Source of the DNA: a virus | DNA length: 64,000 bases | IMG/VR virus record: IMGVR_UViG_3300047564_002155 | Span: 104,129-168,128 of that record | Strand: one strand, 5' to 3' | In this document: one piece after another, positions 35,481-58,810 of the stretch | Position numbering within the stretch: position 1 is the first letter of the stretch | How the letters are laid out: each line of letters begins with the position of its first letter | Translations under genes and position numbers: made by a program | Notes under the pieces: generated by a model | The model's input: the letters and a program-made list of their open reading frames with translations, nothing else | What the model was told of the DNA's origin: nothing | Databases searched by the model: none

Positions 35481-35489
35481 CCAACTTTA

Positions 35490-35498
35490 ATACTTATA
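35490..35498 (+). promoter_or_regulatory. Putative late-promoter motif variant ATACTTATA
   Basis: Intergenic, 15 nt before ATG 35514. Confidence 0.45.
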
Positions 35499-35513
35499 CC
35501 AAAGAGTTACGAT

Positions 35514-38675: not shown

Positions 38676-38677
38676 TT

Positions 38678-39295: not shown

Positions 39296-39347
39296 TGGGT
39301 GTTTTGGAAACGAATCGTGTGTCATAAAGAAAATTTTACAATTATCT

Positions 39348-42119: not shown

Positions 42120-42681
42120 AGAAATATTTAATTCGTTAAGTGGTAAAGCTACCAACGGATTTAATGATGTAAAAACGTATCTTGAAATTGGTGTTAGAGA
42201 AGGTAATACGTTCTCTTTAAGAGTACCCGTTGTGAGTCAGAAATGTGTTGCGATTGATTGCTGGGATTTGTACGAAACGCCATCTCAAAACGATATGAAT
42301 CGTAATCGTGAAGAAGCAAAATATCAATATGAAAATTTAAATAAAAAGTTTTCTGATAATAATAAGGTAGAAGTTATTAGAGCATTCTCAAATGATTCTG
42401 AAATTATTTCACAATTTGGAGATGGTTACTTTGATTTAATTTTTATTGATGGAGACCATTCATATGAGGGTGTAAAGGAAGACCTCAATAACTGGTGGTC
42501 AAAATGTAATACTTTGTTTTGTGGTCACGATTATATGTTAACTGATACGATTTGGGGTGGTGTAAAATGCGGTGTAAAGCAGGCGGTTGATGAGTTTGTT
42601 AATGAAAAAAAAGAAGACATCAAAATGTTTAGGGTACATACCGAATCTACAAACCCAACTTGGTTTATTTGGAAAAAATGA
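42106..42681 (+). CDS. Class I SAM methyltransferase (Methyltransf_24-like)
   Basis: 'LEIGVREG', 'AIDCW', 'FDLIFIDGDHSYEGV..DL..W', 'GHDY', 'GVKQAVDEF'. Confidence 0.9.
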   Translation: MKLTEEIFNSLSGKATNGFNDVKTYLEIGVREGNTFSLRVPVVSQKCVAIDCWDLYETPSQNDMNRNREEAKYQYENLNKKFSDNNKVEVIRAFSNDSEIISQFGDGYFDLIFIDGDHSYEGVKEDLNNWWSKCNTLFCGHDYMLTDTIWGGVKCGVKQAVDEFVNEKKEDIKMFRVHTESTNPTWFIWKK

Positions 42682-42971
42682 ATATCTACGTTGATATAGA
42701 TGAAACCATTTGTTTTTATGATGGTGAAAGAAATTACGAAAATGCAATACCAAATTTGGAAAATATAAAAAAAATTCGTATATTGTATGACCAAGGACAT
42801 ACTATAACATATTGGAGTGCTAGAGGTAGTGTTACTGGAATAAATTGGTATGATATAACTAAAAAACAATTAGATGATTGGGGATGTAAATACCACAATT
42901 TAAGTGTGGGTGAAAAACCAGCATATGATTTATTAATATGTGATAAAACAAAACGAATAGAAGAACTTTAA
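42678..42971 (+). CDS. Small HAD-superfamily (capsule-biosynthesis-type) phosphatase
   Basis: 'YVDIDETIC', 'YWSARG', 'KP.YD.LICDK'. Confidence 0.8.
   Translation: MNIYVDIDETICFYDGERNYENAIPNLENIKKIRILYDQGHTITYWSARGSVTGINWYDITKKQLDDWGCKYHNLSVGEKPAYDLLICDKTKRIEEL
42755..42786 (+). promoter_or_regulatory. Promoter-like motif inside the HAD CDS, upstream of yhcH-like/neuB
   Basis: TTTGGAAAATATAAAAAAAATTCGTATATTGT matches the phage consensus with a 20-nt spacer. Confidence 0.5.
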
Positions 42972-43292
42972 ATGGAACAAACATACATCACTAAAATAAA
43001 AGATGAAAGTTGTCTAGCCGAAGGTCATCTTAAACATATTGATATTCAGTATCTAACCGAAGGTGAAGAGGTAATAGAAATCTATTCAAAAGATGAAGTT
43101 GAGCTGGTTCAAGAATATGATATTGAAAAAGATTACGCATTATATAAACCTATAAAAGAGGGAAGAAAAGTAATACTAAAACCTTATGAATTTTTAATAT
43201 TATATCCAAACGACTTACATATACCAGGACTTGCGTCTGGCAATCCGCAAGAAGTAAAAAAAGTAGTAATTAAAATACCCTACAACAAATGA
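42972..43292 (+). CDS. YhcH/YjgK/NanQ (DUF386) family protein, short form
   Basis: 'EGHLKHIDIQY...GEE', 'YDIEKD', 'F.ILYP.DLHIP', 'VKKVVIKI'. Confidence 0.8.
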   Translation: MEQTYITKIKDESCLAEGHLKHIDIQYLTEGEEVIEIYSKDEVELVQEYDIEKDYALYKPIKEGRKVILKPYEFLILYPNDLHIPGLASGNPQEVKKVVIKIPYNK

Positions 43293-44140
43293 AAAAAACA
43301 TATATTATAGCAGAAATTGGTATCAACCACAATGGTGACCTTGATATCGCAAAGCGACTTATTGATATTGCAGCCTTATCGGGATGTGATGCTGTGAAGT
43401 TTCAAAAAAGAAATCCGGATGTTTGTGTTCCTGAACATCAAAAGGGAATTATGAGAGAAACCCCCTGGGGAACTATGACATATCTTGATTACAAATACCG
43501 AGTTGAATTTGGTAAGGAAGAGTATGACCAAATAGATGAGTATTGTAAACAAAAAGGAATCGCCTGGTCAGCATCGCCTTGGGATATGGATTCTCTTGAA
43601 TTCTTAAATCAATATGATATTCCATTTATCAAAGTACCATCTGCAATGTTGACTAATGATGAATTGTTAGAGGGTTGTGTTGCTACGGGTAAAAAAGTTA
43701 TATTTTCAACTGGTATGTCAACCCAAGAAGAAATTAATCACGCTGTGGAAGTTCTTCGTAATGCAAAGGTAAAGTATAATAACCAATATGAAATTGGATT
43801 ACTACACTGCAACTCTACCTACCCAGCTCCAGTTAATGAGTTAAATTTGTCTGGCATCAAAACACTATCAGAAATGTATTCTGATTTTGAAATTGGATAT
43901 TCCGGTCACGAATTTAGGTTAGGTACTTCGGTTGCTGCTGTTTATTTGGGGGCAAGTATTATTGAAAGACACATTACACTTGACCGAACAATGTGGGGTA
44001 CTGACCATATGGCTTCGGTAGAACCTCAAGGTCTAATTAAACTGATAAAAGGAATCCGTGAACTTGAAGAAGCATATGGCGATGGTATCATCAGAGTAAC
44101 CGACTCTGAAATGCCAGTTCGTAGTAAATTAAGGGGATAA
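43289..44140 (+). CDS. neuB: Sialic acid / nonulosonic acid synthase (NeuB family, no C-terminal AFP domain)
   Basis: 'IIAEIGINHNGD', 'DAVKFQK', 'STGM', 'HCNSTYP', 'GYSGHE', 'IERHITLDR..GTDH.ASVEP'. Confidence 0.93.
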   Translation: MKKTYIIAEIGINHNGDLDIAKRLIDIAALSGCDAVKFQKRNPDVCVPEHQKGIMRETPWGTMTYLDYKYRVEFGKEEYDQIDEYCKQKGIAWSASPWDMDSLEFLNQYDIPFIKVPSAMLTNDELLEGCVATGKKVIFSTGMSTQEEINHAVEVLRNAKVKYNNQYEIGLLHCNSTYPAPVNELNLSGIKTLSEMYSDFEIGYSGHEFRLGTSVAAVYLGASIIERHITLDRTMWGTDHMASVEPQGLIKLIKGIRELEEAYGDGIIRVTDSEMPVRSKLRG

Positions 44141-44934
44141 TGTATACATCATACTTTGATTATATAGAAAAATCAAAAATACATCAAACTGAATTTGATG
44201 TAACTAAATTTACATTAGATTTAAATGGTACAAATTTAGGTATAGAAGTACCTGACAACTATAATACTTTAGTTTCAAATATATCAAAAAATGTATTAGA
44301 AAAAATAAACAATGGTGATGTAATAGATGATAACCTTTTAGTTAAAATAAACAATATGTTGGATGTTCCTGAAGTAATAGAATTGGGAGAACATTTTGCT
44401 AAAGAACTATCAAATAAATTATACGGAACTGAAGTTGTTGTTGAACACCTACACACATATAAAAACAAAATAACGGACCATCAAGAACAATCTTCTTGGT
44501 TATGGCACTATGATAATTGCGCAGTGGGTCAGATAAAAATTATGGTTTATCTTACACCAACTACACGAAAAAATGGAGCGTTTTTAACATTGGTTTTTTC
44601 AGATTCATTTTTTGCATTAGATAGTACAAAAACATCACCAACATCAATATCACCACCATTGTATGAAGATAGTAGAATTCCTTTATCAGAGATAGAAGAA
44701 TTAAAAGCCCAAGGGTTTTTTGAATATTATGTAGAGGGTGACTTGGGAACTTTTATTGTTTTTAGTCAAAATATTGCACATAAAGCAACAATTCCAATTG
44801 AAGAACCTGAAAGAATTTGTATGATATATAATTTTAGACCATATCATAAAAAATTAAACAACCACATTAGTAAAGAAGTAACCAAAGATTGGAATTTCAA
44901 TGGTAATGTAAAAATATACAATTACGAATTATGA
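44140..44934 (+). CDS. 2OG-Fe(II)/PhyH-like dioxygenase
   Basis: 'WLWHYD', 'KIMVYL', 'G..GTFIVF...AHKA...R'. Confidence 0.7.
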   Translation: MYTSYFDYIEKSKIHQTEFDVTKFTLDLNGTNLGIEVPDNYNTLVSNISKNVLEKINNGDVIDDNLLVKINNMLDVPEVIELGEHFAKELSNKLYGTEVVVEHLHTYKNKITDHQEQSSWLWHYDNCAVGQIKIMVYLTPTTRKNGAFLTLVFSDSFFALDSTKTSPTSISPPLYEDSRIPLSEIEELKAQGFFEYYVEGDLGTFIVFSQNIAHKATIPIEEPERICMIYNFRPYHKKLNNHISKEVTKDWNFNGNVKIYNYEL

Positions 44935-45485
44935 GAAAAATATTTATAGATTGTGGATACAATATGGGAGAGGTAACTTCTGATTTTAGAAATAAATTAG
45001 GAGATTCTTTTGAATATTACGCATTTGAAGCGAATCCTTACTTGTATGAAAAATACAAAAACAAACATAATTTTTTATCACTTGAAAATAAAGCTGTTTG
45101 GGTTTTTGATGGTGAGATTCCATTTTATGTTGTTGTTGTTGACCGAGCTGGTAATGATAACAAATATACCGGAGCTTCTACTTTGATAAAAGAAAAATCA
45201 AATTGGAATATGTCTATACATCAACGTGAGGAGGAAGTTATAGTAGAATGTTTTGATTTTTCAAGGTTCCTATCAGAGAATTTTGAAAAAACAGACTACA
45301 TAATTGTAAAAATGGACATAGAGGGTGCTGAATATGAAATACTTAATAAACTCGTAGAAACAAACACAGCAGACTTTATGAATGAATTGTATGTAGAGTT
45401 TCACGATGAGAAGGTGGGATTATCAAAAGATAAAATAATTTCCGATTTAACGAATTTAAATGTAAAGGTACACAAATGGCACTAA
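44931..45485 (+). CDS. FkbM family methyltransferase
   Basis: 'FIDCGYNMG', 'AFEANP', 'KAVW', 'KMDIEGAEY', 'VEFH'. Confidence 0.88.
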   Translation: MRKIFIDCGYNMGEVTSDFRNKLGDSFEYYAFEANPYLYEKYKNKHNFLSLENKAVWVFDGEIPFYVVVVDRAGNDNKYTGASTLIKEKSNWNMSIHQREEEVIVECFDFSRFLSENFEKTDYIIVKMDIEGAEYEILNKLVETNTADFMNELYVEFHDEKVGLSKDKIISDLTNLNVKVHKWH

Positions 45486-45826
45486 AATGGGATGATGGTG
45501 ATTCTCTAAACGAGTTCATAAAAAATAACAAAGAAAATTTAGTAAATTTTGATACTAAAACAATAAAAACAACCAATACCGATAAGGTTACAATATGTGA
45601 AATGACTCGTAGGATAGTTGATACTTTGGTTATTAATGACATTCACGAATCACATCCTGAAGTATTTGAGGAATTGATGTCCCGTATAAAGTATGTATAT
45701 ATTTCGGCTAAAAAAATGCAAAATAGAATATCGGAGTTACGCGGAAGTTCTGATGATTTATGGGAGCAGATAGATGCCGATTATGACATATCAAATAGAA
45801 TTGAACGTATTCAAAAAATAAAATGA
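45476..45826 (+). CDS. Hypothetical helical protein
   Basis: 116 aa, overlaps both neighbours in operon fashion. Confidence 0.55.
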   Translation: MALKWDDGDSLNEFIKNNKENLVNFDTKTIKTTNTDKVTICEMTRRIVDTLVINDIHESHPEVFEELMSRIKYVYISAKKMQNRISELRGSSDDLWEQIDADYDISNRIERIQKIK

Positions 45827-46506
45827 AATCAATATCGGATATTGTAGTTATTCTACAAGCAAGAATGAACTCCCAGCGAGTTCCTAAAAAAATGTTAAAA
45901 CCATTTTTGGATTCAAACTTATTTGAAATCGCTATTAACAAACTTTTAAACTCAAAGGTAATACCAAAGGAAAACATATACGTTTCCGTATTTGAAGATG
46001 AGTTAAAGGATATAGCTAAAAAGTATGGTTTAAACATATACAATAGAAGTAAAGAATCTGCTAATAATGACAACTCACTTCAAAAAATTTATGAATGGCA
46101 TGATAAGTTACCATTCAAATACGTTATAAAAGTTAACGCATGTTCACCTTTGCTTAAAATAGAAACAATTGATGGGTTTATTACTCAATTTATAAATCAG
46201 TCAGAAGATAATTTGTTTGGAGTTATTCCTATGAAAGATTATTTTTGGAATAAAGATGGTATGTTAGTTACACCTTGGCCAGATGGTCAAACAATTATGA
46301 ACACTAAAGCGGTAGAGATAACATATAAAGCAGCTCACGTTTTATACGCTTCTTGTTTAGATTTGATATCACAAAATAGATTTATGGGTGATTTTCAAAA
46401 AGAGGGTGGGATAAAATTATATCCAATGGATGAGTTAGAATGTTTTGATATTGATTATGAGTGGCAATTTAATCTAGCTCAAATTTTATATGAAAAATTT
46501 TCATAA
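45823..46506 (+). CDS. neuA: Acylneuraminate cytidylyltransferase (CMP-sialic acid synthetase family)
   Basis: 'ILQARMNSQRVPKK', 'NACSPLL', 'FDIDYEWQF'. Lies in the NeuB cluster. Confidence 0.85.
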   Translation: MKSISDIVVILQARMNSQRVPKKMLKPFLDSNLFEIAINKLLNSKVIPKENIYVSVFEDELKDIAKKYGLNIYNRSKESANNDNSLQKIYEWHDKLPFKYVIKVNACSPLLKIETIDGFITQFINQSEDNLFGVIPMKDYFWNKDGMLVTPWPDGQTIMNTKAVEITYKAAHVLYASCLDLISQNRFMGDFQKEGGIKLYPMDELECFDIDYEWQFNLAQILYEKFS

Positions 46507-47203
46507 TATAATATATTCAAACGGAAAAATTAATTTACCTATGTTTAAATTTATAAAAGGTAATACTGATTTATTATCGGAAAATATATCTGATAAAAAA
46601 GTTCTCGTTCTTGGTTCAGGACCATCGGCTCGTGATATTGATTGGTCAAGTTATGATTGGGATGTTTTGGTAACTACAAGTTTTTTTTATTTAAATGACT
46701 ATGTTGTATCAAAAAAACCAGTACATATAACCTTATCGGATTTAGTTGATTTAACCGACCCAAGACTTATTAATTTTTTAGATGAGAATCCACGATGTAC
46801 AATTGGATTTGAGCCAAAAGTTCATCCATTTTACGAAGGAATTGAATTTCAAAACTTTTATAAAAAATACGAATCCAGAATGATACTTTACAATGTTTTG
46901 GGTGGTAAAGAAGGTGTTGCTGGTCGTGTTTGTTGGTTAGTTCTTGCCTGTGAACCGAAAATGTTGTATATTTGTGGTATAGATGGTATAAGTAAAGATA
47001 GAGAAAAAGACCCACAAAACTATTTTAGAGACCACATTGGTACTGCGGACCCGTATCCATATGATACTTATTGGAAATCTTTTCAAGAGTTTGGAAATAA
47101 TATTTATAGATTAGGTAGAGAACTAAACGTGGATATTAAAAATCTTGGTAAAGGAAAACCCTATAATATGATTACTAATTTGAGTGAAGAGTATGAATTA
47201 TAA
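46490..47203 (+). CDS. Sialyltransferase-like (GT29/GT42/Maf-type Rossmann) protein
   Basis: 'KKVLVLGSGPS', 'LYICGIDG', C-terminal 'NL'. Immediately after NeuA. Confidence 0.6.
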   Translation: MKNFHNIIYSNGKINLPMFKFIKGNTDLLSENISDKKVLVLGSGPSARDIDWSSYDWDVLVTTSFFYLNDYVVSKKPVHITLSDLVDLTDPRLINFLDENPRCTIGFEPKVHPFYEGIEFQNFYKKYESRMILYNVLGGKEGVAGRVCWLVLACEPKMLYICGIDGISKDREKDPQNYFRDHIGTADPYPYDTYWKSFQEFGNNIYRLGRELNVDIKNLGKGKPYNMITNLSEEYEL

Positions 47204-48083
47204 AGAACTAACATATGAAACCGCAGTACGCGGTGATTTTGGTAATAAAATCGCAGATGAGTGGTCAAGGTGGAAATCTTATGAAAGAAAACGAAAAGAA
47301 CAATTTGACTTTCCACTTGATGAATCAGCACTAAAGATTACAAACGAAGTACACAAAAATGGATACGTTGTAGTAAAGAATTTTTTTGACAAAGACCTTT
47401 TGCAAAAACTAAACAAGGAAACGCAAAATTATATATTGGAAGGTAAGTTTCAAAAATCAATGGCCGGTGGCGGGGTTGGTCGTGAAATTGAAATACGAAA
47501 CTCTAATTTATGGACAACCATTGACCAACCTCTTTTGAATGTTGAGTCTCTTTGGGATGTTGCGTTTCACGATGATTTGGTTGTATTAGCAGCTAATTAT
47601 TTCGGATGTCTGCCATATTTTGGTACCTGTAATTTAAGAAAAAGTTTTGTAAATGACTTAAAAGAAGACCACACGCAAATATATCACCAAGACCCAAATA
47701 GTCCTCAATTTATCAAAATGTTTTTGTATTTAAACGATGTAGATGATATGGGTGGTCCTTTTTGTATTGTGGAAGGAAGTCATAGAAATAAGTTTGAAGG
47801 TTGTTATGATAAATACCGATGGGATACTGATGAAATTAACTTAATATATGGTGAGGATAAGGTAAAATATCTTACGGCTAATGTTGGGGATTTGATTATT
47901 GCAAACACCACAGCGTTTCATAAAGGTACAAAACCATATTCTTCCGATAGAACAATGATTACATTGGATTGGGTTTTACATCCAGAATTTTTTAGTAATC
48001 CCGAATTCAAGATAAAACAAGAAAAATTTGATAAACTTCCAGATTGGAAAAAACCTGTAATGGATTATCTAATTAAAGTATGA
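47193..48083 (+). CDS. Phytanoyl-CoA dioxygenase (PhyH)-like 2OG-Fe(II) enzyme
   Basis: 'NGYVVVKNFF', 'YHQD', 'KMFLYLNDV...GGP...GSH', 'GDLII..T..FHKG...DR'. Confidence 0.85.
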   Translation: MNYKELTYETAVRGDFGNKIADEWSRWKSYERKRKEQFDFPLDESALKITNEVHKNGYVVVKNFFDKDLLQKLNKETQNYILEGKFQKSMAGGGVGREIEIRNSNLWTTIDQPLLNVESLWDVAFHDDLVVLAANYFGCLPYFGTCNLRKSFVNDLKEDHTQIYHQDPNSPQFIKMFLYLNDVDDMGGPFCIVEGSHRNKFEGCYDKYRWDTDEINLIYGEDKVKYLTANVGDLIIANTTAFHKGTKPYSSDRTMITLDWVLHPEFFSNPEFKIKQEKFDKLPDWKKPVMDYLIKV

Positions 48084-49246
48084 ATAAAATAACATTTTGT
48101 ATTCCAAGTAAATCAAATTTGAGATACTTGAAAACAGCAATTCCATCTATTAGAAAAAATGCATATCGTAAAGACCACGATATTATTGTGTTTGTAGATT
48201 CGGATGAAGATGGTACAATTGAGTGGTTAAAAGAAAACGCTGAATCTTTGGGTGTAAAATACTATGTAAATCCTAATTTGGGTAGTTCATTATATGGTAT
48301 TGGTAAAGCTTATGATTATTGTATTGATAAATCAGAAACAAATATTGTAATGATTTTTCACGCAGATATGATGTTGGGTAAGGATGCAGACTTACACGCT
48401 TTTAAACACCTAAAACCATTATCGGTTGTGTGTTCTACTCGTATTGAACCACCACTACACCCAAACGCAGGTGAAAAAATACTTGAAGATTTTGGGTTGT
48501 GGCCGGAAGAGTTTAAAGGTCAAGAATTTGATTCATATGTTGATTCTTTAATCATTCAAAACAAAAACAAAACTACTGAAGGTGTATTTGCTCCGTGGAT
48601 GGTTTACAAAGAAGACATTCAGTCAATAGGAGGTCACGACCCAATTATGCATTCGTGTAGAGAAGATTCCGATTTGTTTAATAGATTTGTATTAAATGGT
48701 TACACATTAGTTCAGTCTTGGGACTCATTAGTGTATCATCTAACCGGCAGAGGTGCTGGTTCATTTGGAGGTGATGAAAAAAGACACGAGCAATGGAAAC
48801 TTGATATGAACAATTCTACAAAAGAATTTATTCGTAAATGGGGATGTGGTGTAAAACACGATAAAATGATGAAACCGATAGTTCCACACAAATACGATAT
48901 AGAATTCAAAGTCACAAACTGTCAAACCCAACACCTTCAATTATTAGAACCTTGGTGTGATAAAATGAGTGTGGATTGTTCCCAAGATGTAATCAATCAA
49001 TACATTCAGTCTGAACAGCCGAACACAAAATTTGATTTGACTAAAAGGTTCAATGTGAATGGAAAATCAGACATTGTGGTGGAATTTGACGCATTACGAC
49101 TGAATAATCAGTCATTTCAATTCATCCAAAATCTATCTGAAATTTTTGATTTTAACAACTTTGATAGTGGTGAGTACGAATTTGACATATTTAAAGTAAA
49201 GGTCAACCGTGTAAAACACTATGAAATGAGTCTTGTAAAACTATGA
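48080..49246 (+). CDS. GT2 glycosyltransferase
   Basis: 'ITFCIP', 'VFVD..DGT.EWL', 'FHADM', 'IGGHD...EDSDLF.R', 'VYH'. Confidence 0.85.
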   Translation: MNKITFCIPSKSNLRYLKTAIPSIRKNAYRKDHDIIVFVDSDEDGTIEWLKENAESLGVKYYVNPNLGSSLYGIGKAYDYCIDKSETNIVMIFHADMMLGKDADLHAFKHLKPLSVVCSTRIEPPLHPNAGEKILEDFGLWPEEFKGQEFDSYVDSLIIQNKNKTTEGVFAPWMVYKEDIQSIGGHDPIMHSCREDSDLFNRFVLNGYTLVQSWDSLVYHLTGRGAGSFGGDEKRHEQWKLDMNNSTKEFIRKWGCGVKHDKMMKPIVPHKYDIEFKVTNCQTQHLQLLEPWCDKMSVDCSQDVINQYIQSEQPNTKFDLTKRFNVNGKSDIVVEFDALRLNNQSFQFIQNLSEIFDFNNFDSGEYEFDIFKVKVNRVKHYEMSLVKL

Positions 49247-49773: not shown

Positions 49774-50619
49774 ATGGCTGTTTACAAAAGAGGTGATAAT
49801 AACGAATTCATCAAAGAAATCCAAAAAGCATTGGGTGTTGACCCAATTGGTAATTTTGGACCAAAAACCGAAGATGCTGTAAAAGCATTTCAAAAGAAAC
49901 ACGGACTTACCGCTGATGGTATTGTTGGTGAATCCACATTAGTTAAATTGGGTCTCAAAGCTCCAGCAGCTCCTGCTGCTAAGCCCGCTGCTAAACCTGC
50001 AGCAGCCGCTCCTGCAAAACCAAGTGCTGCTGCAAAATACAATAAAGAATCTATTGAAAAAGCAGTAAAAGCAAAAGGATACAAGTGGTTTGAAGGTAAA
50101 GACCTTGAACTTAATATCGTAGGTGTTCGTAATTCAGATACAGGTACAAAAGTAACCAATGCTTTTGATGATAGAATTACCGTATCATACAAAGAAAATG
50201 GTGTTTGGGTTTACAATGAATGGATGAATACTACCGACCCTGGTACTAAAGGTGTTAAAGAATATCACAACGCAGCTGGTGTTGCAAGATTGGTTCCTGG
50301 TCAGTATGTTGACTCACACGCGTTGGGTCTACACCAAGGTAAGTATGAAGCCCTAAAACAATTTGGTAAGGTAAAAGTTTATCGTGATGCAAATCGTGAT
50401 ATGAACTATGATGAAACCAAAATCCAAGAAGGTGTATTTGGTATTAACATCCACAAAGCAGGTGCTGATTCTACATTTGTAGAAAACTGGTCTGAAGGAT
50501 GTCAAGTATTCAAAAGAGCGGCTGACTTTGAACAATTTATGACAATTGCAAGAAAAGCAGCGGCTGCTGGAAATAAGAAGTTTACTTATACTTTGATTGA
50601 ATCAAAAGATATCGTTTAA
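49774..50619 (+). CDS. Endolysin: PG-binding domain + Ala/Pro linker + L,D-transpeptidase-like catalytic domain
   Basis: PG_binding_1 'GNFGPKTEDAVKAFQKKHGLTADGIVG..T'; catalytic 'GINIH...WSEGC'. Confidence 0.85.
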   Translation: MAVYKRGDNNEFIKEIQKALGVDPIGNFGPKTEDAVKAFQKKHGLTADGIVGESTLVKLGLKAPAAPAAKPAAKPAAAAPAKPSAAAKYNKESIEKAVKAKGYKWFEGKDLELNIVGVRNSDTGTKVTNAFDDRITVSYKENGVWVYNEWMNTTDPGTKGVKEYHNAAGVARLVPGQYVDSHALGLHQGKYEALKQFGKVKVYRDANRDMNYDETKIQEGVFGINIHKAGADSTFVENWSEGCQVFKRAADFEQFMTIARKAAAAGNKKFTYTLIESKDIV

Positions 50620-50681: not shown

Positions 50682-52601
50682 ATGAAAAAATTATTATTCC
50701 TTTTATTAGGGATTTTATCAATTGGTGCTGTAGCACAAAATGGTAAGACCGAGATATTAGTGGCTCCAAACTCAAACAGCCCATATATCTTGGTTGATAC
50801 CTTGTTTACCCTTGAAGATACATCTGTAACTACGGATATTTACATTCACTTTGCAAATCCAACCGCAAGTAATGTAAAGGCAGTTCAGTTCAGATTGTTC
50901 TATGACAATACGAAGTTCTCAAATGTTCAGGTATTTTGGGGGCCAACCGCTCTTTCTATATCAGACAAGTATGGTTCCTTCTTCAAAAGTGGTGACTATG
51001 TGAATATTATTGGAACTTACACCGGAAACAATCAAAACTTTGATTGGTCTGATGGTGCTATGTTCAAAGTAAGATTAACGCATGGTTCGGCATATCAAGG
51101 TGTGGTAAACTCAATGGCTACTACCGGTACAACTTCATACTCAAACCTTGCTACTACTGGAAATGGTACGGATGTTACTTTGGGATTATTCAATTATGGT
51201 GGCGCTTTCCAAATGCAACCAATCACATTCCCAATCAGAGTTAAAAACGCAGATGGTTCTGCAGCACAAGGTGTTTGGTTTTCAGCATCAAAAAGATTAA
51301 AGTCAACTCCGCAAGCAACTTGGCAACCAATTACATCTGACTCAACAAACGCATTGGGTTTAGTATCATTTACACATCCACTTGATACCTCATATTGGAA
51401 TTTAAAGATTACTGCTCAAACCGACACTATGGGTGATGGTGGTGCTATTTCAATTACGGATGCATACAAATTGGCAAACCACGCTTCAATGCAAGATACT
51501 TTGAGTGGTATTGAATGGTATGAAGGTGATATCAACCAATCACAAACAGCAACAATTTCTGACGCATTTGCTGTGTTTAATAGATTGGCTCTTCAGTCTA
51601 CGGATTGGGATGGTTTATTCACCGGCGTAAACAACGTATCGGTATTATGGCCAAATGAGTACACTACTGCTGTATCAGCAACCGGTATTCCAGACTGGAC
51701 TACTTCGCCAAGAAGATATCAAATTGATACTATTGTAAACTCACTTGACTCAATTAACCCATACATTTATGTAGTGGGTGACGCGACAACTACGGGCTAT
51801 AACAACCCTGCGGTTATTATGGCAAAAATTGCAAACCCAGGCACCGGAACTGATTACATACTTGACCCAGCAGTTTATATGGTCAATAGAGATGACACGG
51901 TTCAATTCCGTATTCCTAAATTGGTAATTGCAAATAATCAAATGGAAGTTCCTGTGACTATGTTCACATTTGGTAATAAGATTGGTGCTGCTCAAATGGG
52001 TATTGAGTTTGATACTACAATCTTCCAATTTAGTTCTATCAAAGTTGGTGATGATGTATCAAAATGGACATCATTAATTTCGGTAGAAAAGGGTAGAGTA
52101 TTCTTCGCAGGACACGAAGACAAAATGAACCCATCGTTGGTTGAAACAATGACCAATCAATTTACATTTGTATTTAATGTTATCAATCCAATTGGATGGC
52201 AGACTTCACCTTTGAGAATCTTTGATAAATCTGCTGGTAATGAAAAGGCAGAAGACCTGTCAGTTAAACCATCACCAAACGATGGTTCGGTAGTGAATAG
52301 AAACTCAATGAACCCTGACCTTGCTGAATTGATGACCGGATTCAAAGTGTATCCAAACCCTGTTACCGACCTTACCGATGGTTGGTTAGTAATTGAACAC
52401 TTTAACGAATATAGAAATTCTGACTTTACTGGTGTAATTTACAACATTAGTGGTCAAGTATCACAAGTTTACCAAACAAAGATTACCAACATTGGTTTCC
52501 AAGTACACGGAATAAATGTTAAGGACCTACCGAATGGAGTATACTTTGTTAAGTTAGTTACGGCGGATAGAGAAAAAGTTGTGAAAATTGTTAAATATTA
52601 A
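50682..52601 (+). CDS. T9SS-secreted cohesin/dockerin scaffold-like protein
   Basis: Signal peptide; cohesin-like 'DIYIHF...VKAVQFRLFYDNT'; dockerin-like 'ISITDA...GDINQSQTATISDAF'; second cohesin-like 'MEVPV...IGAAQMGIEFDTT.F'; type A CTD 'FKVYPNPV...IYNISGQ...INVKDLPNGVYFVKL...KIVK'. Confidence 0.8.
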   Translation: MKKLLFLLLGILSIGAVAQNGKTEILVAPNSNSPYILVDTLFTLEDTSVTTDIYIHFANPTASNVKAVQFRLFYDNTKFSNVQVFWGPTALSISDKYGSFFKSGDYVNIIGTYTGNNQNFDWSDGAMFKVRLTHGSAYQGVVNSMATTGTTSYSNLATTGNGTDVTLGLFNYGGAFQMQPITFPIRVKNADGSAAQGVWFSASKRLKSTPQATWQPITSDSTNALGLVSFTHPLDTSYWNLKITAQTDTMGDGGAISITDAYKLANHASMQDTLSGIEWYEGDINQSQTATISDAFAVFNRLALQSTDWDGLFTGVNNVSVLWPNEYTTAVSATGIPDWTTSPRRYQIDTIVNSLDSINPYIYVVGDATTTGYNNPAVIMAKIANPGTGTDYILDPAVYMVNRDDTVQFRIPKLVIANNQMEVPVTMFTFGNKIGAAQMGIEFDTTIFQFSSIKVGDDVSKWTSLISVEKGRVFFAGHEDKMNPSLVETMTNQFTFVFNVINPIGWQTSPLRIFDKSAGNEKAEDLSVKPSPNDGSVVNRNSMNPDLAELMTGFKVYPNPVTDLTDGWLVIEHFNEYRNSDFTGVIYNISGQVSQVYQTKITNIGFQVHGINVKDLPNGVYFVKLVTADREKVVKIVKY

Positions 52602-52615
52602 TAAAAAGGAAGAAT

Positions 52616-52864
52616 ATGGCATTTGTAGACATCTTCAAAGACAAAAACGATTTTAATGAAAAAACAATCGTGGGATTTCTGTCATTTTCAGTTATGGCTA
52701 TCTTCGCCGGCGCTGATGTTGTAACAGGTATTATGGGTCAAGAGTTAATCATCTCTGACACTATTTTTAATTCATTCGTAATGATTACTTTGGGTGCTTT
52801 TGGTATTGCTGAAGCTGGAAAGATTTTCGGTGGCAAGAAAAAAGATGAAGAAGAATTAGGTTAA
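52616..52864 (+). CDS. Small two-TM membrane protein (holin-like)
   Basis: Two hydrophobic helices and a charged C-terminal tail. Confidence 0.6.
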   Translation: MAFVDIFKDKNDFNEKTIVGFLSFSVMAIFAGADVVTGIMGQELIISDTIFNSFVMITLGAFGIAEAGKIFGGKKKDEEELG

Positions 52865-52884
52865 TTTAAAATAAGGAAGAAGTG

Positions 52885-53277
52885 ATGTCAGAAGAACAAC
52901 AAGAAGGCGGACTATCGGGTCTTAAAAAGACCATCCTTGGAGTAGCTGGAACTGCTGTTACAGGTTTTGGAATCTGGGCAAGTACAAACATCAATAAGAT
53001 TTTTGGTGTAGAGGAAGAGTCGGATGTAAAAACTGAACAAGTTCAACAGGTTCAACAACAACCTGCTGCAGCTCCCGTGGTTATTAACCTTGAAAATAAC
53101 AACACTCAACAGCAAAGTTCTGGCGGTGGTACTCATACAAGAGAAATCATCAGAGAAGTTCCTGCTCAACAACCTGCAGCAGCTCCCGCTCCTGTGGTTG
53201 AAAAGAAGGAAACTCCTGCTGAAAGAATCGCAAGACTAAAAGCTGAAAAAGAAGCTAAAAACGCGGGTGGTCAATGA
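52885..53277 (+). CDS. Membrane-anchored Gln/Pro/Ala-rich protein
   Basis: N-terminal TM 'ILGVAGTAVTGFGIWA', repeated 'QQPAAAP', charged C-terminal helix. Confidence 0.65.
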   Translation: MSEEQQEGGLSGLKKTILGVAGTAVTGFGIWASTNINKIFGVEEESDVKTEQVQQVQQQPAAAPVVINLENNNTQQQSSGGGTHTREIIREVPAQQPAAAPAPVVEKKETPAERIARLKAEKEAKNAGGQ

Positions 53278-54014
53278 GAACTCGTAAAGATGTAATTTTA
53301 GAGTATATCTTTGCACCATTAGGTGTGATTATGGTGGTGGGTGGCTTACTTTTTGTAGGAACAATGGCTACTTCGTGTAAGTCATCTATTTCTACGGAAG
53401 CATACAAAGCGGAGTTTGAACAAGCACAACCATTAAATACACTACCGGCTTATACTGGTGAAAAGCAAGTGGTTCAACTTGCTACTCTTAATGTTAACAA
53501 AGAACTTTGGGATATGTTCCCTGAACTTCGTGACAAAAGAGTTGGTATGGGTGTATCAAATCGTATTGTAGAGAACTTTGAAACAACTGGTAGGTTTACT
53601 TATGCTGAAGAAAAAGAAGCAATTGTAAACCAAATGTTGGATACTTGGGAAAAAGACTTACAAGGTCTTGGTGATGGTAAAACAAAATTAAATGTTGGTT
53701 CTGTGGTATTGCCAAAGTATATTGTGTATGCTGAAATCTATGACTTTTCGGTATCTTACGCTGAAACTTACGACAAGGGTAAATTGAATAAAACCAACAC
53801 TACAATTATTGGTATCCAAATCCGTATGGTAAATGTGGATAATTCTCAATACATTGTAGCATCAGGTCAAGGAACATCTACTCAAGTTGGTGAGGGTTAC
53901 TTCAAAAACCCAACTATGGGGTTTGATAACTCTACCGTAGGTATCTCTACACAACGCGCTTTGGAGGTTGCTACTATGAACCTCATCAAGCGTATGGAAC
54001 AAAATGGATGGTAA
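53274..54014 (+). CDS. CsgG/HfaB-like outer-membrane lipoprotein
   Basis: Lipobox 'ATSC'; 'GMGVSNRIVE.FETTGRF...E', 'YIVYAEIYDF', 'IGIQIRMVNVD.SQ.I.ASGQG', 'F....G....ALE'. Confidence 0.75.
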   Translation: MRTRKDVILEYIFAPLGVIMVVGGLLFVGTMATSCKSSISTEAYKAEFEQAQPLNTLPAYTGEKQVVQLATLNVNKELWDMFPELRDKRVGMGVSNRIVENFETTGRFTYAEEKEAIVNQMLDTWEKDLQGLGDGKTKLNVGSVVLPKYIVYAEIYDFSVSYAETYDKGKLNKTNTTIIGIQIRMVNVDNSQYIVASGQGTSTQVGEGYFKNPTMGFDNSTVGISTQRALEVATMNLIKRMEQNGW

Positions 54015-55455
54015 ACATTGGATAACTCTCCTATTTCTCGTATTGGGGTTTGGTGTAGCTGCACAAACATATCAGTATAGCTACACCGACCCTTGTACAG
54101 GGATATTAAACACAGTTACAATTACACAACAAACGGGTTCGGTTACATTATTTTACGCCGGACAATATCAAACTTTTACAGCGGCTCAATTACAAGCCGG
54201 AGCATATGAAGCTTGGATAGCTCAAATCAATGCTCAGTTTCCACCTGGTTCAAATCCTTGTGCTGGGAATGGTGGTCAAAACGCAAATAATTCCAACGTG
54301 AGTATTGGAACCAATTCAGCAACAAATATTACAAACATCATAGGTATAGCTACTTCAGTTAGTGGTTCTGCTTCGGGCGCTGCCGGAAATATTGGCGGTG
54401 GTATGGGTGGTGGTGATATGGGCGGTGGTGGTTCAAGTGGTGGTGACCCCGGTGAAAACGGAGCCGGTGGGTCATCTTCATCAAGTGGTGGCTCCGGTGG
54501 TGGTTCAAAACCACCTACCGGTGGAAGTGGTTCATCAAGTGGTGGTGGCTCTACCAGCGGTAGTGGTTCTACTGGCGGTGGAAGTGGTTCGGGTGGTGGT
54601 CAACCATCCGGTGGAGGTCAACCCGCGTCTGGTCAAGGTGAGGGTGGTGGTGGTTCCGTTCCATCATCCGGTGGTGGTGGTGAAAGTGGTGGTGGAACCG
54701 AGCAAGGTGCTGTGGGTGAGAGTTCTACAACAACCGCAAGTGGTGGTGAATCCGAATCATCTTCATCCGAAGGTGGTGGTGGAGGTGGCGGTAGTCGTCA
54801 AAAATCAAAACAAGAGCGTATTGCAAGAGGTGCTTTAATTGGGGCTGGTGATATTGTTGTGATTAGAAACTCCGCTAATATCCAAGATACGGGTAAAGAT
54901 AACCTAAAAGTAAACCTATCACTAACGCACGTTAATACAAAACAAAACTTTATTAAAGGTATGGCATTAAACTATCAGACAGGTGAGAATGTAGCTAATG
55001 TGACTTTGTATGGTAGTTTTAAATCAAAAGGTTATATGGGTGTCTTTTCAAACTCATTTATGACCAATTTTCAAACCGATTGGTTCAATACAGGTTCATT
55101 CTTAAATGCTCAAAAAACAGGTCCTGCGACCTGGTTGCTTGGTTTAAACTATACATTTGGTTCGTTGGGTAAAAGTGATTTCCAAAACTTTTCTCTTGTT
55201 GGCGGAACCTTTACAAATTTTAAAGGTGGTAAATCATTTAGTTCTAATGTAATGATGTTAGGTATTTATAGTCCCTATGTGTTTTATTACGAAGGTCAAT
55301 GGTATAAATCAGGAGTTATATTAGTTCCTATGATGAATATGGATTTTAAATTAACTGATAAGTTTAAATGGAGCATTTCATTTAGTGGTGCTTATCAGCT
55401 TAATGCTGAAATTTTAAATTACCAAGTAATGACCGGAACAAAGATGTTGTTATGA
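54004..55455 (+). CDS. Secreted protein with Gly/Ser linker and predicted C-terminal outer-membrane beta-barrel
   Basis: Signal peptide; Cys-paired N-terminal domain ('DPC..NPC'); ~150 aa G/S-rich region; C-terminal ~200 aa of alternating amphipathic beta-strands. Confidence 0.6.
   Translation: MDGKHWITLLFLVLGFGVAAQTYQYSYTDPCTGILNTVTITQQTGSVTLFYAGQYQTFTAAQLQAGAYEAWIAQINAQFPPGSNPCAGNGGQNANNSNVSIGTNSATNITNIIGIATSVSGSASGAAGNIGGGMGGGDMGGGGSSGGDPGENGAGGSSSSSGGSGGGSKPPTGGSGSSSGGGSTSGSGSTGGGSGSGGGQPSGGGQPASGQGEGGGGSVPSSGGGGESGGGTEQGAVGESSTTTASGGESESSSSEGGGGGGGSRQKSKQERIARGALIGAGDIVVIRNSANIQDTGKDNLKVNLSLTHVNTKQNFIKGMALNYQTGENVANVTLYGSFKSKGYMGVFSNSFMTNFQTDWFNTGSFLNAQKTGPATWLLGLNYTFGSLGKSDFQNFSLVGGTFTNFKGGKSFSSNVMMLGIYSPYVFYYEGQWYKSGVILVPMMNMDFKLTDKFKWSISFSGAYQLNAEILNYQVMTGTKMLL
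54360..54795 (+). repeat. Low-complexity (GGT/AGT/TCA)n Gly-Ser coding tract
   Basis: Dense ggtggtggt / ggttcatca repeats, locally GC-rich. Confidence 0.85.
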
Positions 55456-56444
55456 GATGGTTTATTTTTATTCTTATTTTTATACTCACAGTATCAATTG
55501 AGGGGTATTCTCAAACCTTTACTCATTCGGGAACTATTAGAACTGAAGGTAACATAGTTGTTCCAGGAGTAACAGTTAAACTTTATAAAAGAACTACTCC
55601 TGTAATAACAGGATTCACAAACCAGCAGAACTACAACGGACACTCTTACTATCGGTCAACAAGTTCTGCCTTCTGGTCAGCAGCCAAAGCTGCTTGTGAG
55701 AATATGGGTGGACATTTAGTAACAGTAACTTCAGCAGCTGAAAATAGCTTCATCTTCAATCTATGGCCATCTGGCTGGATTGGACTAACAGACGAAGTAA
55801 CGGAAGGACAGTGGAGATGGGTTACAGGAGAAACTTATTCATACTCATCTTGGAATAGCGGTGAACCAAACAACGCAGGTAATGAAGACTACGTTCAGTT
55901 TGTTGGTGGTGGTAGATGGAATGACCTACCTAATAATGTATCTCTACCATATGTGTTAGAATTTGAATACATAGTAACGACTACACCCTGGGTGTTACAA
56001 GCAACATCAGTCACAAATGCTAGCGGTCAATATTCATTTAGTCAGGTCACTAACCCTTCAGTTGAATGGTATATTGAAGTAGTTGTTCCAACAGTCTCAT
56101 CCAACCCAGCGATATCTGATTTTGATGGTCCAAGTGATGTTATTTTGGGTAGAACTGCTTTAAAACCATATCACTATCACAAATATGATTTGAGTGGTGA
56201 GGGTAAAATTACAATTGCAGATATTTGTATAATTGCTGATAGAATAAATGGAACACCTTTTACAAAGAATACTTTACTCTTTACAAATACCCAATGGACA
56301 AGTTTAAATAGTGGAACTTCTGATTTAAGAGCCACAATACCCGGACTTGCAACTTCATACACATTTACTCCCACATCGGGCGGAACAAGTAATTTCTATT
56401 TATTATCACCGGGTTATAACAATCAGTCAGCCTTGACCTATTAA
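55452..56444 (+). CDS. Secreted C-type lectin + dockerin-like protein
   Basis: Signal peptide; CTLD 'YNGHSYY..W..A..AC..GGHLVT..S..EN...WIGLTD..EG.WRW..GE...W..GEPNN..EDY..WND'; dockerin-like 'YDLSGEGKITIAD'. Confidence 0.85.
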   Translation: MRWFIFILIFILTVSIEGYSQTFTHSGTIRTEGNIVVPGVTVKLYKRTTPVITGFTNQQNYNGHSYYRSTSSAFWSAAKAACENMGGHLVTVTSAAENSFIFNLWPSGWIGLTDEVTEGQWRWVTGETYSYSSWNSGEPNNAGNEDYVQFVGGGRWNDLPNNVSLPYVLEFEYIVTTTPWVLQATSVTNASGQYSFSQVTNPSVEWYIEVVVPTVSSNPAISDFDGPSDVILGRTALKPYHYHKYDLSGEGKITIADICIIADRINGTPFTKNTLLFTNTQWTSLNSGTSDLRATIPGLATSYTFTPTSGGTSNFYLLSPGYNNQSALTY

Positions 56445-56445
56445 A

Positions 56446-57585
56446 ATGAAATGGATACTAACATTATTACCATTTGTCACTTTTGGACAAACCATAACTC
56501 TGACTCCGATTGGAACGCAGGATGTTAGTGGTATACCTGTTCAAGTTGAACACTATGTAAATTATGTTCCAAACCACTCCATCTCATCGGTAACATATAA
56601 CCCATTAGGAACAACTGGAACATCAGTATCATTGGGTGATGATGATAATATAGGCCCGTTTAACATAGGTTTTAACTTTGAGTTCTATGGGCAAACCTTT
56701 TCACAATTTAGAATATGCACCAATGGATTCATTACATTTGGTGACCCATCTGGAACTTATTCTCCCACATCGTTTCCATCATCAGCAACTCCCAATGGTG
56801 TAGTAGCAGCATATTGGACAGACCTATTTCCAACCTCTGGTTATTATGTGAGATATAGAACCGAAGGAACTGCTCCAAATAGACAATTGGTTGTAAGTGC
56901 TCACCTAACCTATTATTCAAATAGAAATGCTTGGGTAGATTATCAGATTATTTTATTTGAAGGAACTAATAAAGTTCAAACCACAATCACATCACAAGGT
57001 TGGACTACCACAGCAACTCAAGGTGTGGAGAATCACCAAGGAACTTTAGCAGCAACTCCACCTGGTAGAAACCTTACATCATTCAATGGTGCAGGAACTA
57101 CATTTGAATACACCCCGATGCCACCACTTCAAGGATGGGAATCACAAGGAACAAAAAATACAAATACAAGTGGACAGGTATCCTTTACTAACTCACTTAA
57201 CTGGCCATATAGAGTAACCATAAACACATCACAAAAAACACACTTAATAACTGATTTTAGTTTAAACTATATGATGTTTATGAAAGCTGGATTAGGACCA
57301 TTACAAGATTGGGACTTCTATACTTGTGATTGTGATAATTCATCAACATTTAATTGGGAAGATATTTATTGGTGTTATATGTTGTATTCAAATGGGTATT
57401 ACCATAACAAATATGTTTTCACTCAAGCTGAAAAAACAACAATAGAAAGTGATGTAAATACTAATTATTATAACACTTACTTTCCAACTCAAGTAAGAAC
57501 CATTGAAAATCAAAATCAGTTTTATATAATGGGAACCGGAATCCACAATGCTTCCCCTAATTCTAATGTAGGAAAAATACAATGA
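56446..57585 (+). CDS. Secreted NIDO-like domain + dockerin-like protein
   Basis: Signal peptide; 'GDDD...NIGFNFEFYG....ICTNGFITF...VAAYWTDL...YQIILFEG'; dockerin-like 'CDCDNSSTFNWED'. Confidence 0.7.
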   Translation: MKWILTLLPFVTFGQTITLTPIGTQDVSGIPVQVEHYVNYVPNHSISSVTYNPLGTTGTSVSLGDDDNIGPFNIGFNFEFYGQTFSQFRICTNGFITFGDPSGTYSPTSFPSSATPNGVVAAYWTDLFPTSGYYVRYRTEGTAPNRQLVVSAHLTYYSNRNAWVDYQIILFEGTNKVQTTITSQGWTTTATQGVENHQGTLAATPPGRNLTSFNGAGTTFEYTPMPPLQGWESQGTKNTNTSGQVSFTNSLNWPYRVTINTSQKTHLITDFSLNYMMFMKAGLGPLQDWDFYTCDCDNSSTFNWEDIYWCYMLYSNGYYHNKYVFTQAEKTTIESDVNTNYYNTYFPTQVRTIENQNQFYIMGTGIHNASPNSNVGKIQ

Positions 57586-57980
57586 ACGCAGTAATATGTT
57601 ATTTTATTTCATCGGTAATTTCATTAGCAACTCTACCTGGAGTTCCTGCTGAAAAGTTAACCTTTGGTGCAAGACAAATCACAACCGAGTTAGTCGGTCA
57701 GAAATATTCATTATGTGATGATGGTAAGCCCGTAGAAGTAACCATCCTTTCGGTAGATGCTCCAACCACTGGAATTCAAATTGGACCCTTTGAATTCAAA
57801 TCAAAGAAGACAATTGTAAAAACCAAAGTGGTAATGAATGGTAAAGAGTATTATGGTATCGGAAAAGCAAAAACAAATGTTGCTGCTACGCTAATGCAAT
57901 TACAAGATGAAGAACTACCATTTGAAAGAACCGAGTTTTCAGTAGCATTAAAAAAATCATTGGAAGACGCTCTTAACTGA
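57582..57980 (+). CDS. Small CsgG-like paralog
   Basis: 'FGARQITTELV' and 'FERTEFSVALKKSLE' parallel 'MGVSNRIVENF' and 'FDNSTVGISTQRALE' in the 53274 protein. Confidence 0.5.
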   Translation: MNAVICYFISSVISLATLPGVPAEKLTFGARQITTELVGQKYSLCDDGKPVEVTILSVDAPTTGIQIGPFEFKSKKTIVKTKVVMNGKEYYGIGKAKTNVAATLMQLQDEELPFERTEFSVALKKSLEDALN

Positions 57981-57988
57981 TATTTATT
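57980..57988 (+). promoter_or_regulatory. Putative late-promoter motif ATATTTATT
   Basis: 3 nt before ATG 57992. Confidence 0.55.
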
Positions 57989-57991
57989 AGT

Positions 57992-58810
57992 ATGAAAAAA
58001 CTCATCAATGAATGTATCATAGTAGCCAAGAGAGTTGGTGATACTCTTGTTATGGCGAAGAACCGAGATAGGGCTTATAAGCCCGAACTTGAAGTGGTTC
58101 ACGAAATTATTGATGGAGTTGAAGTAGCATATCTACGAGATACTATTACGGATTGGTCCGAAGGTATGAACGAGTATGGTATTGGTATTCTCAATACAGC
58201 CCTTATGGTTGGATACGATGAGAACGAAAAGAAGATTGTGAAGAAGGGTGGTAAACCCTCAAAAGATGGTGCAAGAATTAGACAAGCACTTTCAAAGAAA
58301 ACACTTAAAGACACGCTTGTTCAAGTTGTAAGGGGTGATGGTGGTGTAAAGGGTCACACTATGATTGGAACACCACAAAAGGTAGTTTCGGTTGAGATGA
58401 CCTCTAAACACTCACCTAAAATTGATGTTAGAGATGTTGACTCTGAAAACTTTGTAAGAACAAACCACGGATATCATTATGGTGATGCTGGATATACGGA
58501 AGGACCTGATTACCTTTCATCCAAAATCAGAAAGATGTCTGCTGAAAAGGTGGTAGACAAAGTTGAAGATGCTATTGAGATTTTAAGAGGATTGAGAAAA
58601 CAATTGTATAAACAAGACTCACCTCTTAATATGAGAAGAGATACACCAAAAATGTCCACTTCATCTCAATTGATGTTAAACCTTACTGATTTAGTATTAG
58701 AATTGGATTTCTTTGAAAGTAAGGTAGAAAAGTTTCACGGAATTGTGAATAAACTTCCAGAGGGTAGAACTCCGAGGATAAAAGTAGTTGTGAAAAAAAT
58801 CAATCTATAA
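57992..58810 (+). CDS. Ntn-hydrolase-fold protein (C45/NRDE/choloylglycine-hydrolase-like)
   Basis: 'C-IIVA....VMAKNRD', 'EGMNEYGIGI', 'RTNH'. Confidence 0.7.
   Translation: MKKLINECIIVAKRVGDTLVMAKNRDRAYKPELEVVHEIIDGVEVAYLRDTITDWSEGMNEYGIGILNTALMVGYDENEKKIVKKGGKPSKDGARIRQALSKKTLKDTLVQVVRGDGGVKGHTMIGTPQKVVSVEMTSKHSPKIDVRDVDSENFVRTNHGYHYGDAGYTEGPDYLSSKIRKMSAEKVVDKVEDAIEILRGLRKQLYKQDSPLNMRRDTPKMSTSSQLMLNLTDLVLELDFFESKVEKFHGIVNKLPEGRTPRIKVVVKKINL

Follow-up and report, generated by a model that had tools for sequence, protein, structure and literature searches.

The stretch of viral DNA analysed here is a window of 64,000 nucleotides, the terminal part of the 168,128-bp record IMGVR_UViG_3300047564_002155 (completeness estimate 94%). 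In it three neighbouring open reading frames (ORFs) on the + strand encode proteins built on one frame, namely a scaffold (50682-52601) and two cargo proteins (55452-56444 and 56446-57585), all with Sec-type leaders at their N-termini. We are highly confident that this frame, a transthyretin-like beta-sandwich with a dockerin-like element, is shared by the three proteins and that lectin cassettes are exchanged at the loop between its strands B and C. The stretch is best explained as the variable portion of a phage module that is itself conserved. For the system as a whole we favour, with moderate confidence, a shared frame with exchanged lectins, displayed through cohesin-dockerin contacts on a scaffold exported through type IX secretion (T9SS). 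The homologue sets comprised 1740, 343, and 164 matches for the three frame proteins, and the 82 related loci that were compared consisted of 80 IMG/VR loci fetched via the gene of a neighbouring lipoprotein, the Flavobacterium phage vB_FspM_immuto (immuto in the following) and the window itself.

Homology and fold of the shared frame

Pairwise comparison of the three frame proteins by BLASTP gave weak matches (3e-4, 0.022, and 0.75). When profiles of the segments past the insertion point were compared by hhalign, the 55452 family aligned with the 50682 family at 95.6% (E=1.3e-8) and with the 56446 family at 94.1% (E=1.2e-7), and the 56446 and 50682 families aligned with each other at 79.6% (E=1.5e-5). 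Across the 82 loci each class's profile also found members of the other classes, with values reaching about 1e-20. Over their full length the frames of the scaffolds and of cargo with N-terminal fusions aligned with few gaps, and G, N, D, and G positions are invariant in this alignment. The two cargo classes are bridged by a cargo protein from a 254-kb contig of a metagenome-assembled genome (MAG; locus L084). Over 308 aa this protein shares 30% identity with ORF 56446, and its frame matches the hidden Markov model (HMM) of the frame at 2e-42. These comparisons establish that a frame of approximately 150-200 residues is homologous among the scaffold and the two cargo proteins. A common chassis of the three had been proposed in a first-pass annotation from the letters alone, and the peptide strings quoted there are all present in the three ORFs.

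The fold of the frame was approached through the AlphaFold2 (AF2) model of the second cargo protein (predicted local distance difference test score, pLDDT, 87.7). Structural alignment of this model with VIA-align returned YedX, transthyretin, HIUase, SdrD-B, CnaB2, and the transthyretin-like domain of carboxypeptidase D, with Z-scores of 4.8-6.1 and root-mean-square deviations of 2.5-3.4 A over 71-93 aligned residues. The aligned range extends from residue ~12 to residue ~365 of the model and contains only ~90 aligned residues, so that one sandwich appears to be spread over the strands at 14-40, 228-267, and 350-363; the domain at 44-227 and the helical part at 270-335 would consequently both be excursions from it. 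From the alignment ranges and the strand order we infer that the dockerin-like part is embedded between strands of the same sandwich. In a Foldseek search of BFVD the model matched scaffold-type proteins at 2.6e-6 and 3.6e-6, and one of the PDB gave nothing at E<=0.001; the family profile of this cargo protein had no match in the PDB either.

The profile of the uninterrupted frame points in the same direction. Its positions 21-63 align with transthyretin and HIUase chains in the PDB (E 0.005-0.05), whereby the conserved Trp of the frame falls on the start of strand C. Positions 20-85 retrieved giant CarboxypepD_reg/SdrD_B repeat proteins from the 1.84 billion representatives that were searched, among them a CarboxypepD_reg-repeat protein (P0421; Pfam 4e-185) matched by the frame profile at 1.9e-21. 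The window proteins do not reach the Pfam cut-offs for CarboxypepD_reg or SdrD_B. Sub-threshold matches to these two families are found in 9 and 14 of 57 cargo, respectively, and directly C-terminal to the lectin of the first cargo protein they score 17.1 and 17.7 bits, below the cut-offs of 32.3 and 29.7. We consequently describe the frame as a transthyretin-like (CarboxypepD_reg/SdrD-B type) beta-sandwich bearing a dockerin-like EF-hand pair. The immunoglobulin-like (Ig-like) fold of the first description is thereby replaced, but its dockerin part stood, as an EF-hand pair of an atypical kind.

The insertion site and its occupants

Inserts enter the sandwich at its B-C loop. In the scaffold, where the frame is uninterrupted (aa ~178-374, 51213-51803; strands A-E, the dockerin-like pair and terminal strands ending in G-Y-N), this loop is short and counts 8-10 residues. 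In cargo of the insert type the match to the uninterrupted-frame HMM falls into two pieces, one from ~14 to 55 straight after the leader and one from ~42-47 to 200 past the insert. The split point was identical in all classes with both pieces, i.e., in proteins with a C-type lectin domain (CTLD), with a CTLD that itself contains a laminin-G (LamG) domain, or with PA14, and in L073-type and L069-type proteins. The NIDO-like proteins of the window clade gave the second piece only, and it begins at the same HMM position.

The first cargo protein (cargo 1, 330 aa) has a leader followed by strands A-B (aa 21-48, 55512-55595; AF2 strands 22-28 and 41-48, pLDDT 74-78), the CTLD in the B-C loop (aa ~57-172, 55620-55967), and the remaining frame with the dockerin-like pair (aa 176-325, 55977-56426), whose canonical Ca-type loop D246-D257 starts from ~56187. 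Its N-terminal frame piece is weak in the window protein (independent E-value, iE, of 5) and reaches 2e-5 to 6e-5 in close family members; the post-insert piece covers frame HMM positions 44-201 at iE=2e-22. A C-type lectin had been noted earlier at ~55630-55970, and we recover it at ~55620-55960. Residues 74-168 match Pfam Lectin_C (PF00059) with E=8.6e-17 (62.3 bits, cut-off 22.6), and the CTLD profile finds the mannose receptor, DC-SIGN, and mannose-binding protein (MBP) in the PDB at 1e-35 to 1e-17. The residues E138-P139-N140 and W156-N157-D158 are invariant across 49 homologues, and binding of the mannose/GlcNAc/glucose type is predicted from the EPN motif. Neither cargo protein has a match in PHROGs. 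Cargo 1 is 52% identical to gp013 of immuto, which is also the only phage in the phage collection to match the region at nucleotide level. This sole nucleotide-level similarity in the 6.9-kb region (72%, ~500 bp) lies in the CTLD-coding part, 55572-56074, which is much better conserved than its flanks.

The second cargo protein (cargo 2, 379 aa) is arranged in the same manner. After the leader come strands A-B (aa 15-40, 56488-56565; AF2 strands 14-22 and 31-40), then a NIDO-like beta-sandwich insert (aa ~44-227, 56575-57126), and then the post-insert frame (aa 228-364, 57127-57537) with strands C-E, the dockerin-like helices at 270-335, a loop D295-D306 from ~57328, and terminal strands at 350-363. 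The post-insert piece matches frame HMM positions 47-200 at iE=7e-7. The N-terminal piece was not detected by the HMM and is assigned from the AF2 model and from the structural alignments, of which the transthyretin-like ones begin at model residue 8-13. The suggestion that this insert is NIDO-like is confirmed only in part. Pfam NIDO (PF06119) was found in seven of 49 family members (best E=1.6e-5) and a precomputed table lists it for cargo 2, but our own Pfam scan of the window protein returned no domain match and no NIDO at E<=1. The structural neighbours of the insert are generic supersandwich/mutarotase-like domains (Z ~5.5) and are not decisive. The Pfam scan agreed with the earlier remark that neither cargo protein has a T9SS C-terminal domain (CTD).

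Among the relatives, Pfam matches and clustering of the pre-frame regions showed a C-type lectin in the loop of 31 proteins and PA14 in seven; further loop inserts are NIDO-like domains, an unnamed domain of ~160 aa, and CTLDs with a laminin-G/ConA-like domain nested inside. Among the related phages the loop is in this way occupied combinatorially. Other relatives carry their extra domains as N-terminal fusions to an uninterrupted frame, namely GEVED (seven proteins), CTLD plus Ig_7, a 788-aa unknown region, a legume lectin plus LamG (P0382), and the N-domain of the scaffold. Use of the loop by every relative is thereby ruled out, and loop insertion is the most frequent of several modes. The nested case can be read directly from one alignment, in which residues 2-119 and 131-325 of ORF 55452 correspond to residues 4-118 and 356-553 of the L057 cargo, and at sequence level it is proven. 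Such three-level nesting, with a LamG/ConA-like domain of ~237 aa in a CTLD in the frame, was seen at L057:5350-7017 and L061:12854-14494, and in P0049-P0062 and P0450.

Cassette exchange at the loop borders

Identities computed separately for strands A-B, the insert, and the post-insert frame do not run in parallel. Two PA14 cargo, those of L008 and L049, are 38, 64, and 22% identical in these three segments, respectively, while the L008 protein and ORF 56446 of the window, which differ in their inserts (19%), are 64% identical in strands A-B and 60% in the post-insert frame. The same pattern was obtained for the unnamed insert: L029 and L069 are 27, 62, and 33% identical in the three segments, and L029 and ORF 56446 are 79, 28, and 70% identical. 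Thus, frames that are 60-79% identical bear unrelated inserts, and PA14, the unnamed domain, and the NIDO-like domain each occur on both frame lineages. Because the segment identities are mosaic and discordant in this way, the sequences show that recombination has swapped cassettes across frame lineages that have diverged, and that the breakpoints lie at the borders of the loop. The idea that binding domains are exchanged at a fixed insertion point has in this way been borne out, as homologues do vary there, with the reservation that the loop is not the only site used.

The dockerin-like element

The dockerin-like element follows strand E in the scaffold and in cargo 2. The loop coordinates proposed for it in the first-pass annotation fall on D282 of the scaffold, Y245/D246 of cargo 1 and C294/D295 of cargo 2, which are starts of loops of the type D-x-[ND]-x-S/E...D12; in the scaffold the canonical loop starts at position 51525. 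The second F-hand repeat is canonical in all three (D-I-N-Q-S...D, D-L-S-G-E...D, and D-C-D-N-S...D), and N3 and D12 of its loop are invariant. Positions 84-148 of the frame profile, which take in the entire module of ~60 aa, retrieved proteins with 4-10 Pfam Dockerin_1 copies (P0432, P0464, P0478, P0482, P0493, and P0502). The first of these is matched by the frame profile at 1.4e-19 and has a Pfam Dockerin_1 value of its own of 9.5e-86. Dockerin_1 was found at E<=0.1 in eight of 57 cargo (best 2.8e-4), and in one close homologue of ORF 55452 (P0083) it exceeds the Pfam cut-off, with 26.6 bits against 22.9. From these sequence features the element is classified as dockerin-like but atypical, with one canonical Ca-type loop. 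A dockerin-bearing frame and a cohesin occur together in all 82 loci.

The scaffold

The scaffold (50682-52601, 639 aa) has a Sec leader, a cohesin-like N-domain, the uninterrupted frame described above, a cohesin, and a T9SS type A CTD. The cohesin (aa ~407-544, 51900-52313) was recognized by Pfam PF00963 with 29.5 bits (cut-off 24.1), and its profile matched scaffoldin cohesins of C. cellulolyticum in the PDB, 2vn5 at E=5.2e-5 over the whole domain (chain residues 7-149) and 1g1k at 1.8e-4. The CTD (aa 556-637, 52347-52592) matched Pfam PF18962 (Por_Secre_tail) at E=3.4e-10 with 40.5 bits (cut-off 27) and a Por CTD in the PDB, 8glj_D, at E=1.3e-7. Judged by these matches, the scaffold bears a true cohesin and a true T9SS type A sorting domain. 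The N-domain (aa ~20-175, 50739-51206) is possibly a first cohesin, as Pfam Cohesin matches it in six of 14 scaffold orthologues (best E=1.8e-4). The window copy gave no such match, the N-domain did not align significantly with the C-terminal cohesin half (hhalign probability 1.8%), and its profile found no useful match in the PDB.

In immuto the scaffold is represented by two genes, gp014 with the N-domain and the dockerin frame but without CTD, and gp015 with the cohesin and the CTD; the window scaffold corresponds to a fusion of the two (L001, NC_055915, 8935-10759, versus 50682-52601 in the window). Since the anchor with cohesin and CTD is here separate from the dockerin-bearing adaptor, the dockerin of the frame has an obvious partner. 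The split scaffold was seen in about a quarter of the related loci, and in these phages the cargo gene lies upstream.

Module organization and genomic context

The ORFs from 52601 to 57992 overlap or are separated by gaps of 1-17 nt and form one tightly packed block. The gene order in the 82 loci is scaffold, ORF 52882, lipoprotein 53274, ORF 54004, one or two cargo genes, and ORF 57582, and all of these lie on the + strand in the window, as do nearly all of its ORFs. ORF 52882 (52882-53277) encodes a small protein (131 aa) in which a single hydrophobic segment is combined with a tail rich in Q/A/P; it has the same position in 77 of 82 loci and matches gp016 of immuto. The lipoprotein (53274-54014, 246 aa) has a lipobox ending in TSC and was present in all 82 loci. 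Pfam CsgG (PF03783) was found in one of 17 orthologues at E=0.011, the profile had no match in the PDB, and the neighbours in the Atlas (language-model) comparison were CsgG/LpoB clusters at 0.94. We treat its likeness to CsgG as a lead only.

The secreted protein encoded by ORF 54004 (54004-55455, 483 aa; in 81 of 82 loci) consists of a leader, a long Gly/Ser-rich linker, and a C-terminal domain. It had no Pfam match. The Atlas neighbours of residues 280-483 were a Bacteroidota 'transporter' cluster at 0.95 and OmpK/Tsx at 0.92, and the C-terminus may be an outer-membrane barrel, again as a lead only. The low-complexity linker counts ~190 residues (window 54300-54870), and a 158-aa ORF found in another frame at 54362-54838 was rejected as an artefact of this repeat-like region. 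The last member of the block, ORF 57582 (57582-57980, 132 aa), occurs in 82 of 82 loci and is a short paralogue of the C-terminal part of the lipoprotein. The HMM of its family cross-matches the lipoprotein family in 55 of the 82 loci, and the single-sequence hhalign match is weak (E=0.019).

The corresponding block of immuto comprises gp013-gp019, and it resembles the window in that gp016, gp017, gp018, and gp019 are the counterparts of ORFs 52882, 53274, 54004, and 57582. It differs in the split scaffold and in the single cargo gene, placed upstream. The annotation of immuto gives only 'lectin C-type domain', 'cohesin domain', and hypothetical proteins for these genes.

Directly upstream of the module lies an endolysin-like gene (49774-50619) with PG_binding_1 and phrog_3000 domains, and this gene or relatives of it adjoin the module in many related loci, on either side. 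Other genes of the window encode a family-B DNA polymerase, ribonucleotide reductase, glycosyltransferases, and a carbamoyltransferase; genes for the carbamoyltransferase and for GT4-type glycosyltransferases are found upstream of the module at 33660-49246. The host of the phage looks Flavobacterium-like.

Distribution

The complete frame is confined to a few dozen 50%-identity clusters among the representatives searched. A scan of 185,579 species genomes with the lipoprotein alignment found no relative, and a scan of the same genomes with a closer alignment of the frame returned a single contig, the above-mentioned L084 (CAIWBA010000291.1, an uncultured Bacteroidetes MAG), with a complete module. 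The contig probably derives from a large phage that ended up in the MAG bin. As the sole match in species genomes is thus phage-like, the module looks restricted to phages, within the limits of pattern scanning. Literature searches found no description of a phage cohesin-dockerin module or of a phage module with T9SS cargo.

Discussion

The module looks like a phage-made, cellulosome-style kit for placing exchangeable lectins on the infected cell. In the mechanism that we propose, all module products would be exported by the Sec system of the host, and the scaffold would then leave via the host T9SS and be held at the cell surface. There its cohesin or cohesins would bind the dockerin-like element of the cargo, and exchangeable lectins would be displayed on the infected cell or on its debris. 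We regard this docking on a T9SS-exported, surface-held scaffold as an evenly balanced proposition. The cargo, having no CTD, might exit as folded cohesin-dockerin complexes with the scaffold, through the membrane proteins of the module itself, or upon lysis. Folded proteins are translocated by T9SS (PMC9251779). A full phage display system, in which a T9SS-tagged cohesin anchor carries folded CTD-less lectins through the type IX translocon and re-coats the infected Flavobacterium with glycan binders exchangeable in a combinatorial way, to hide receptors, shut out rival phages or glue cells to partners, is conceivable but in our view doubtful. If true, it would be the first natural case of T9SS hitch-hiking and the first viral cohesin-dockerin machine. 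The likely purpose would be the binding of host-type surface glycans, e.g., for receptor masking, exclusion of other phages or clumping of cells, and these roles are speculative. The lectin repertoire would in that case follow glycan diversity, much like that of receptor-binding proteins.

Several results weigh against this picture. None of the three window proteins matches Pfam Dockerin_1 (PF00404) at E<=0.1, and positions 84-140 of the frame profile cover the PDB dockerins 6kg9/6kgc from end to end with weak E-values of 0.5-1.2. In the first F-hand repeat D12 and the helix are kept and the loop is degenerate; for this reason the dockerin is considered atypical, and it might be a structural Ca site only. 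The structural Z-scores of 5-6 are moderate and lie in a range which the alignment tool calls common. The AF2 model of cargo 1, built with 49 homologues, has a pLDDT of 51 and is usable for the sandwich strands only. Finally, the literature searches found no description of CTD-less partners hitch-hiking through T9SS.

The degenerate first repeat, the missing Dockerin_1 matches, and the weak PDB dockerin matches would all suit an account in which the frame and the swapped lectins are real and the dockerin-like element is a Ca-stabilised structural subdomain. The cargo would then be free periplasmic or lysis-released lectins which never dock, and the proximity of the cohesin gene would reflect common regulation. 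That the scaffold carries the same element is odd for a simple anchor and also speaks for this account. Against it stand the joint occurrence of dockerin-bearing frame and cohesin in every one of the 82 loci, the separate anchor gene with cohesin and CTD in immuto-type phages, which is an obvious dockerin partner, and the genuine multi-dockerin proteins retrieved by the frame profile. We consider this account fairly unlikely. The proteins could also be parts of the virion, fibre tips or decoration proteins, with N-termini that are not signal peptides and with lectins serving as receptor-binding domains of the phage. Phage fibres and capsids often carry lectin-type and Ig/transthyretin-like domains, the variability resembles that of receptor-binding proteins, and the frame profile weakly matches a tail fibre protein (9e7m, E=0.24). 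However, each of the proteins starts with a short hydrophobic leader whose end directly precedes a Gln (the usual arrangement in Bacteroidota), the CTD of the scaffold exceeds its Pfam cut-off, and the module includes a lipoprotein with a lipobox. Neither is there a match to a structural PHROG family, and the nearest neighbour is endolysin-like and not a tail gene. A place in the virion is for us a very unlikely one.

It could further be argued that the three-way likeness reflects chance or the composition of Thr/Ser/Asn-rich beta strands, without common origin, and the weak pairwise BLASTP values would be in keeping with this. Yet the profile-profile comparisons (1e-8 to 1.5e-5), the cross-class HMM matches, the collinear full-length alignment with its invariant G, N, and D, and the intermediate cargo of L084 agree with each other, as do the mosaic identities, and chance is therefore effectively refuted.

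The loci offer a clear-cut case from nature of cassette exchange of the domain-in-loop kind, with up to three nested levels and with recombination points that can be mapped. They further suggest that in large aquatic phages of Bacteroidota a self-encoded cohesin-dockerin lectin complex, delivered via the host T9SS, serves to remodel the surface of the host. This raises the questions of how CTD-less proteins cross the outer membrane, and of which glycans are read by phage lectins, and why. A cultured relative is available in immuto, which grows on Flavobacterium sp. LMO8. A compact frame that accepts whole domains in one loop and has its own docking tag could, moreover, serve as a scaffold in protein engineering.

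Comparison with known systems

With cellulosome-type assemblies the module has in common a scaffoldin-type cohesin (2vn5/1g1k-like) and dockerin-like EF-hand pairs on several cargo, and the split into anchor and adaptor in immuto-type phages resembles that of anchoring and adaptor scaffoldins. In contrast to cellulosomes, it comes from a lytic-type phage, its cargo are lectins or adhesion domains and not enzymes, and its anchor is a T9SS CTD in place of an SLH domain or a sortase signal. Moreover, its dockerin has one canonical Ca loop and is, by the AF2 model, embedded in a transthyretin-like sandwich, where cellulosomes have a free C-terminal module. The scaffold is like the type A CTD cargo of Bacteroidota T9SS in its Sec leader and its C-terminal sorting domain of ~80 aa, but it is phage-borne and has CTD-less partners that would need the scaffold or another exit route. 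The strand order and the sequence pattern of strands A-E are those of CarboxypepD_reg/SdrD-B/CnaB/transthyretin-like adhesin stalks. Whereas such stalks are tandem arrays, the phage frame is single-copy and hosts two inserted modules, the lectin in the B-C loop and the dockerin further on. The CTLD, finally, corresponds to a full-length carbohydrate-recognition domain of the animal type (mannose receptor, DC-SIGN, MBP) with invariant EPN and WND motifs, but unlike these it sits in a loop of another domain, and laminin-G interrupts it in some of the relatives.

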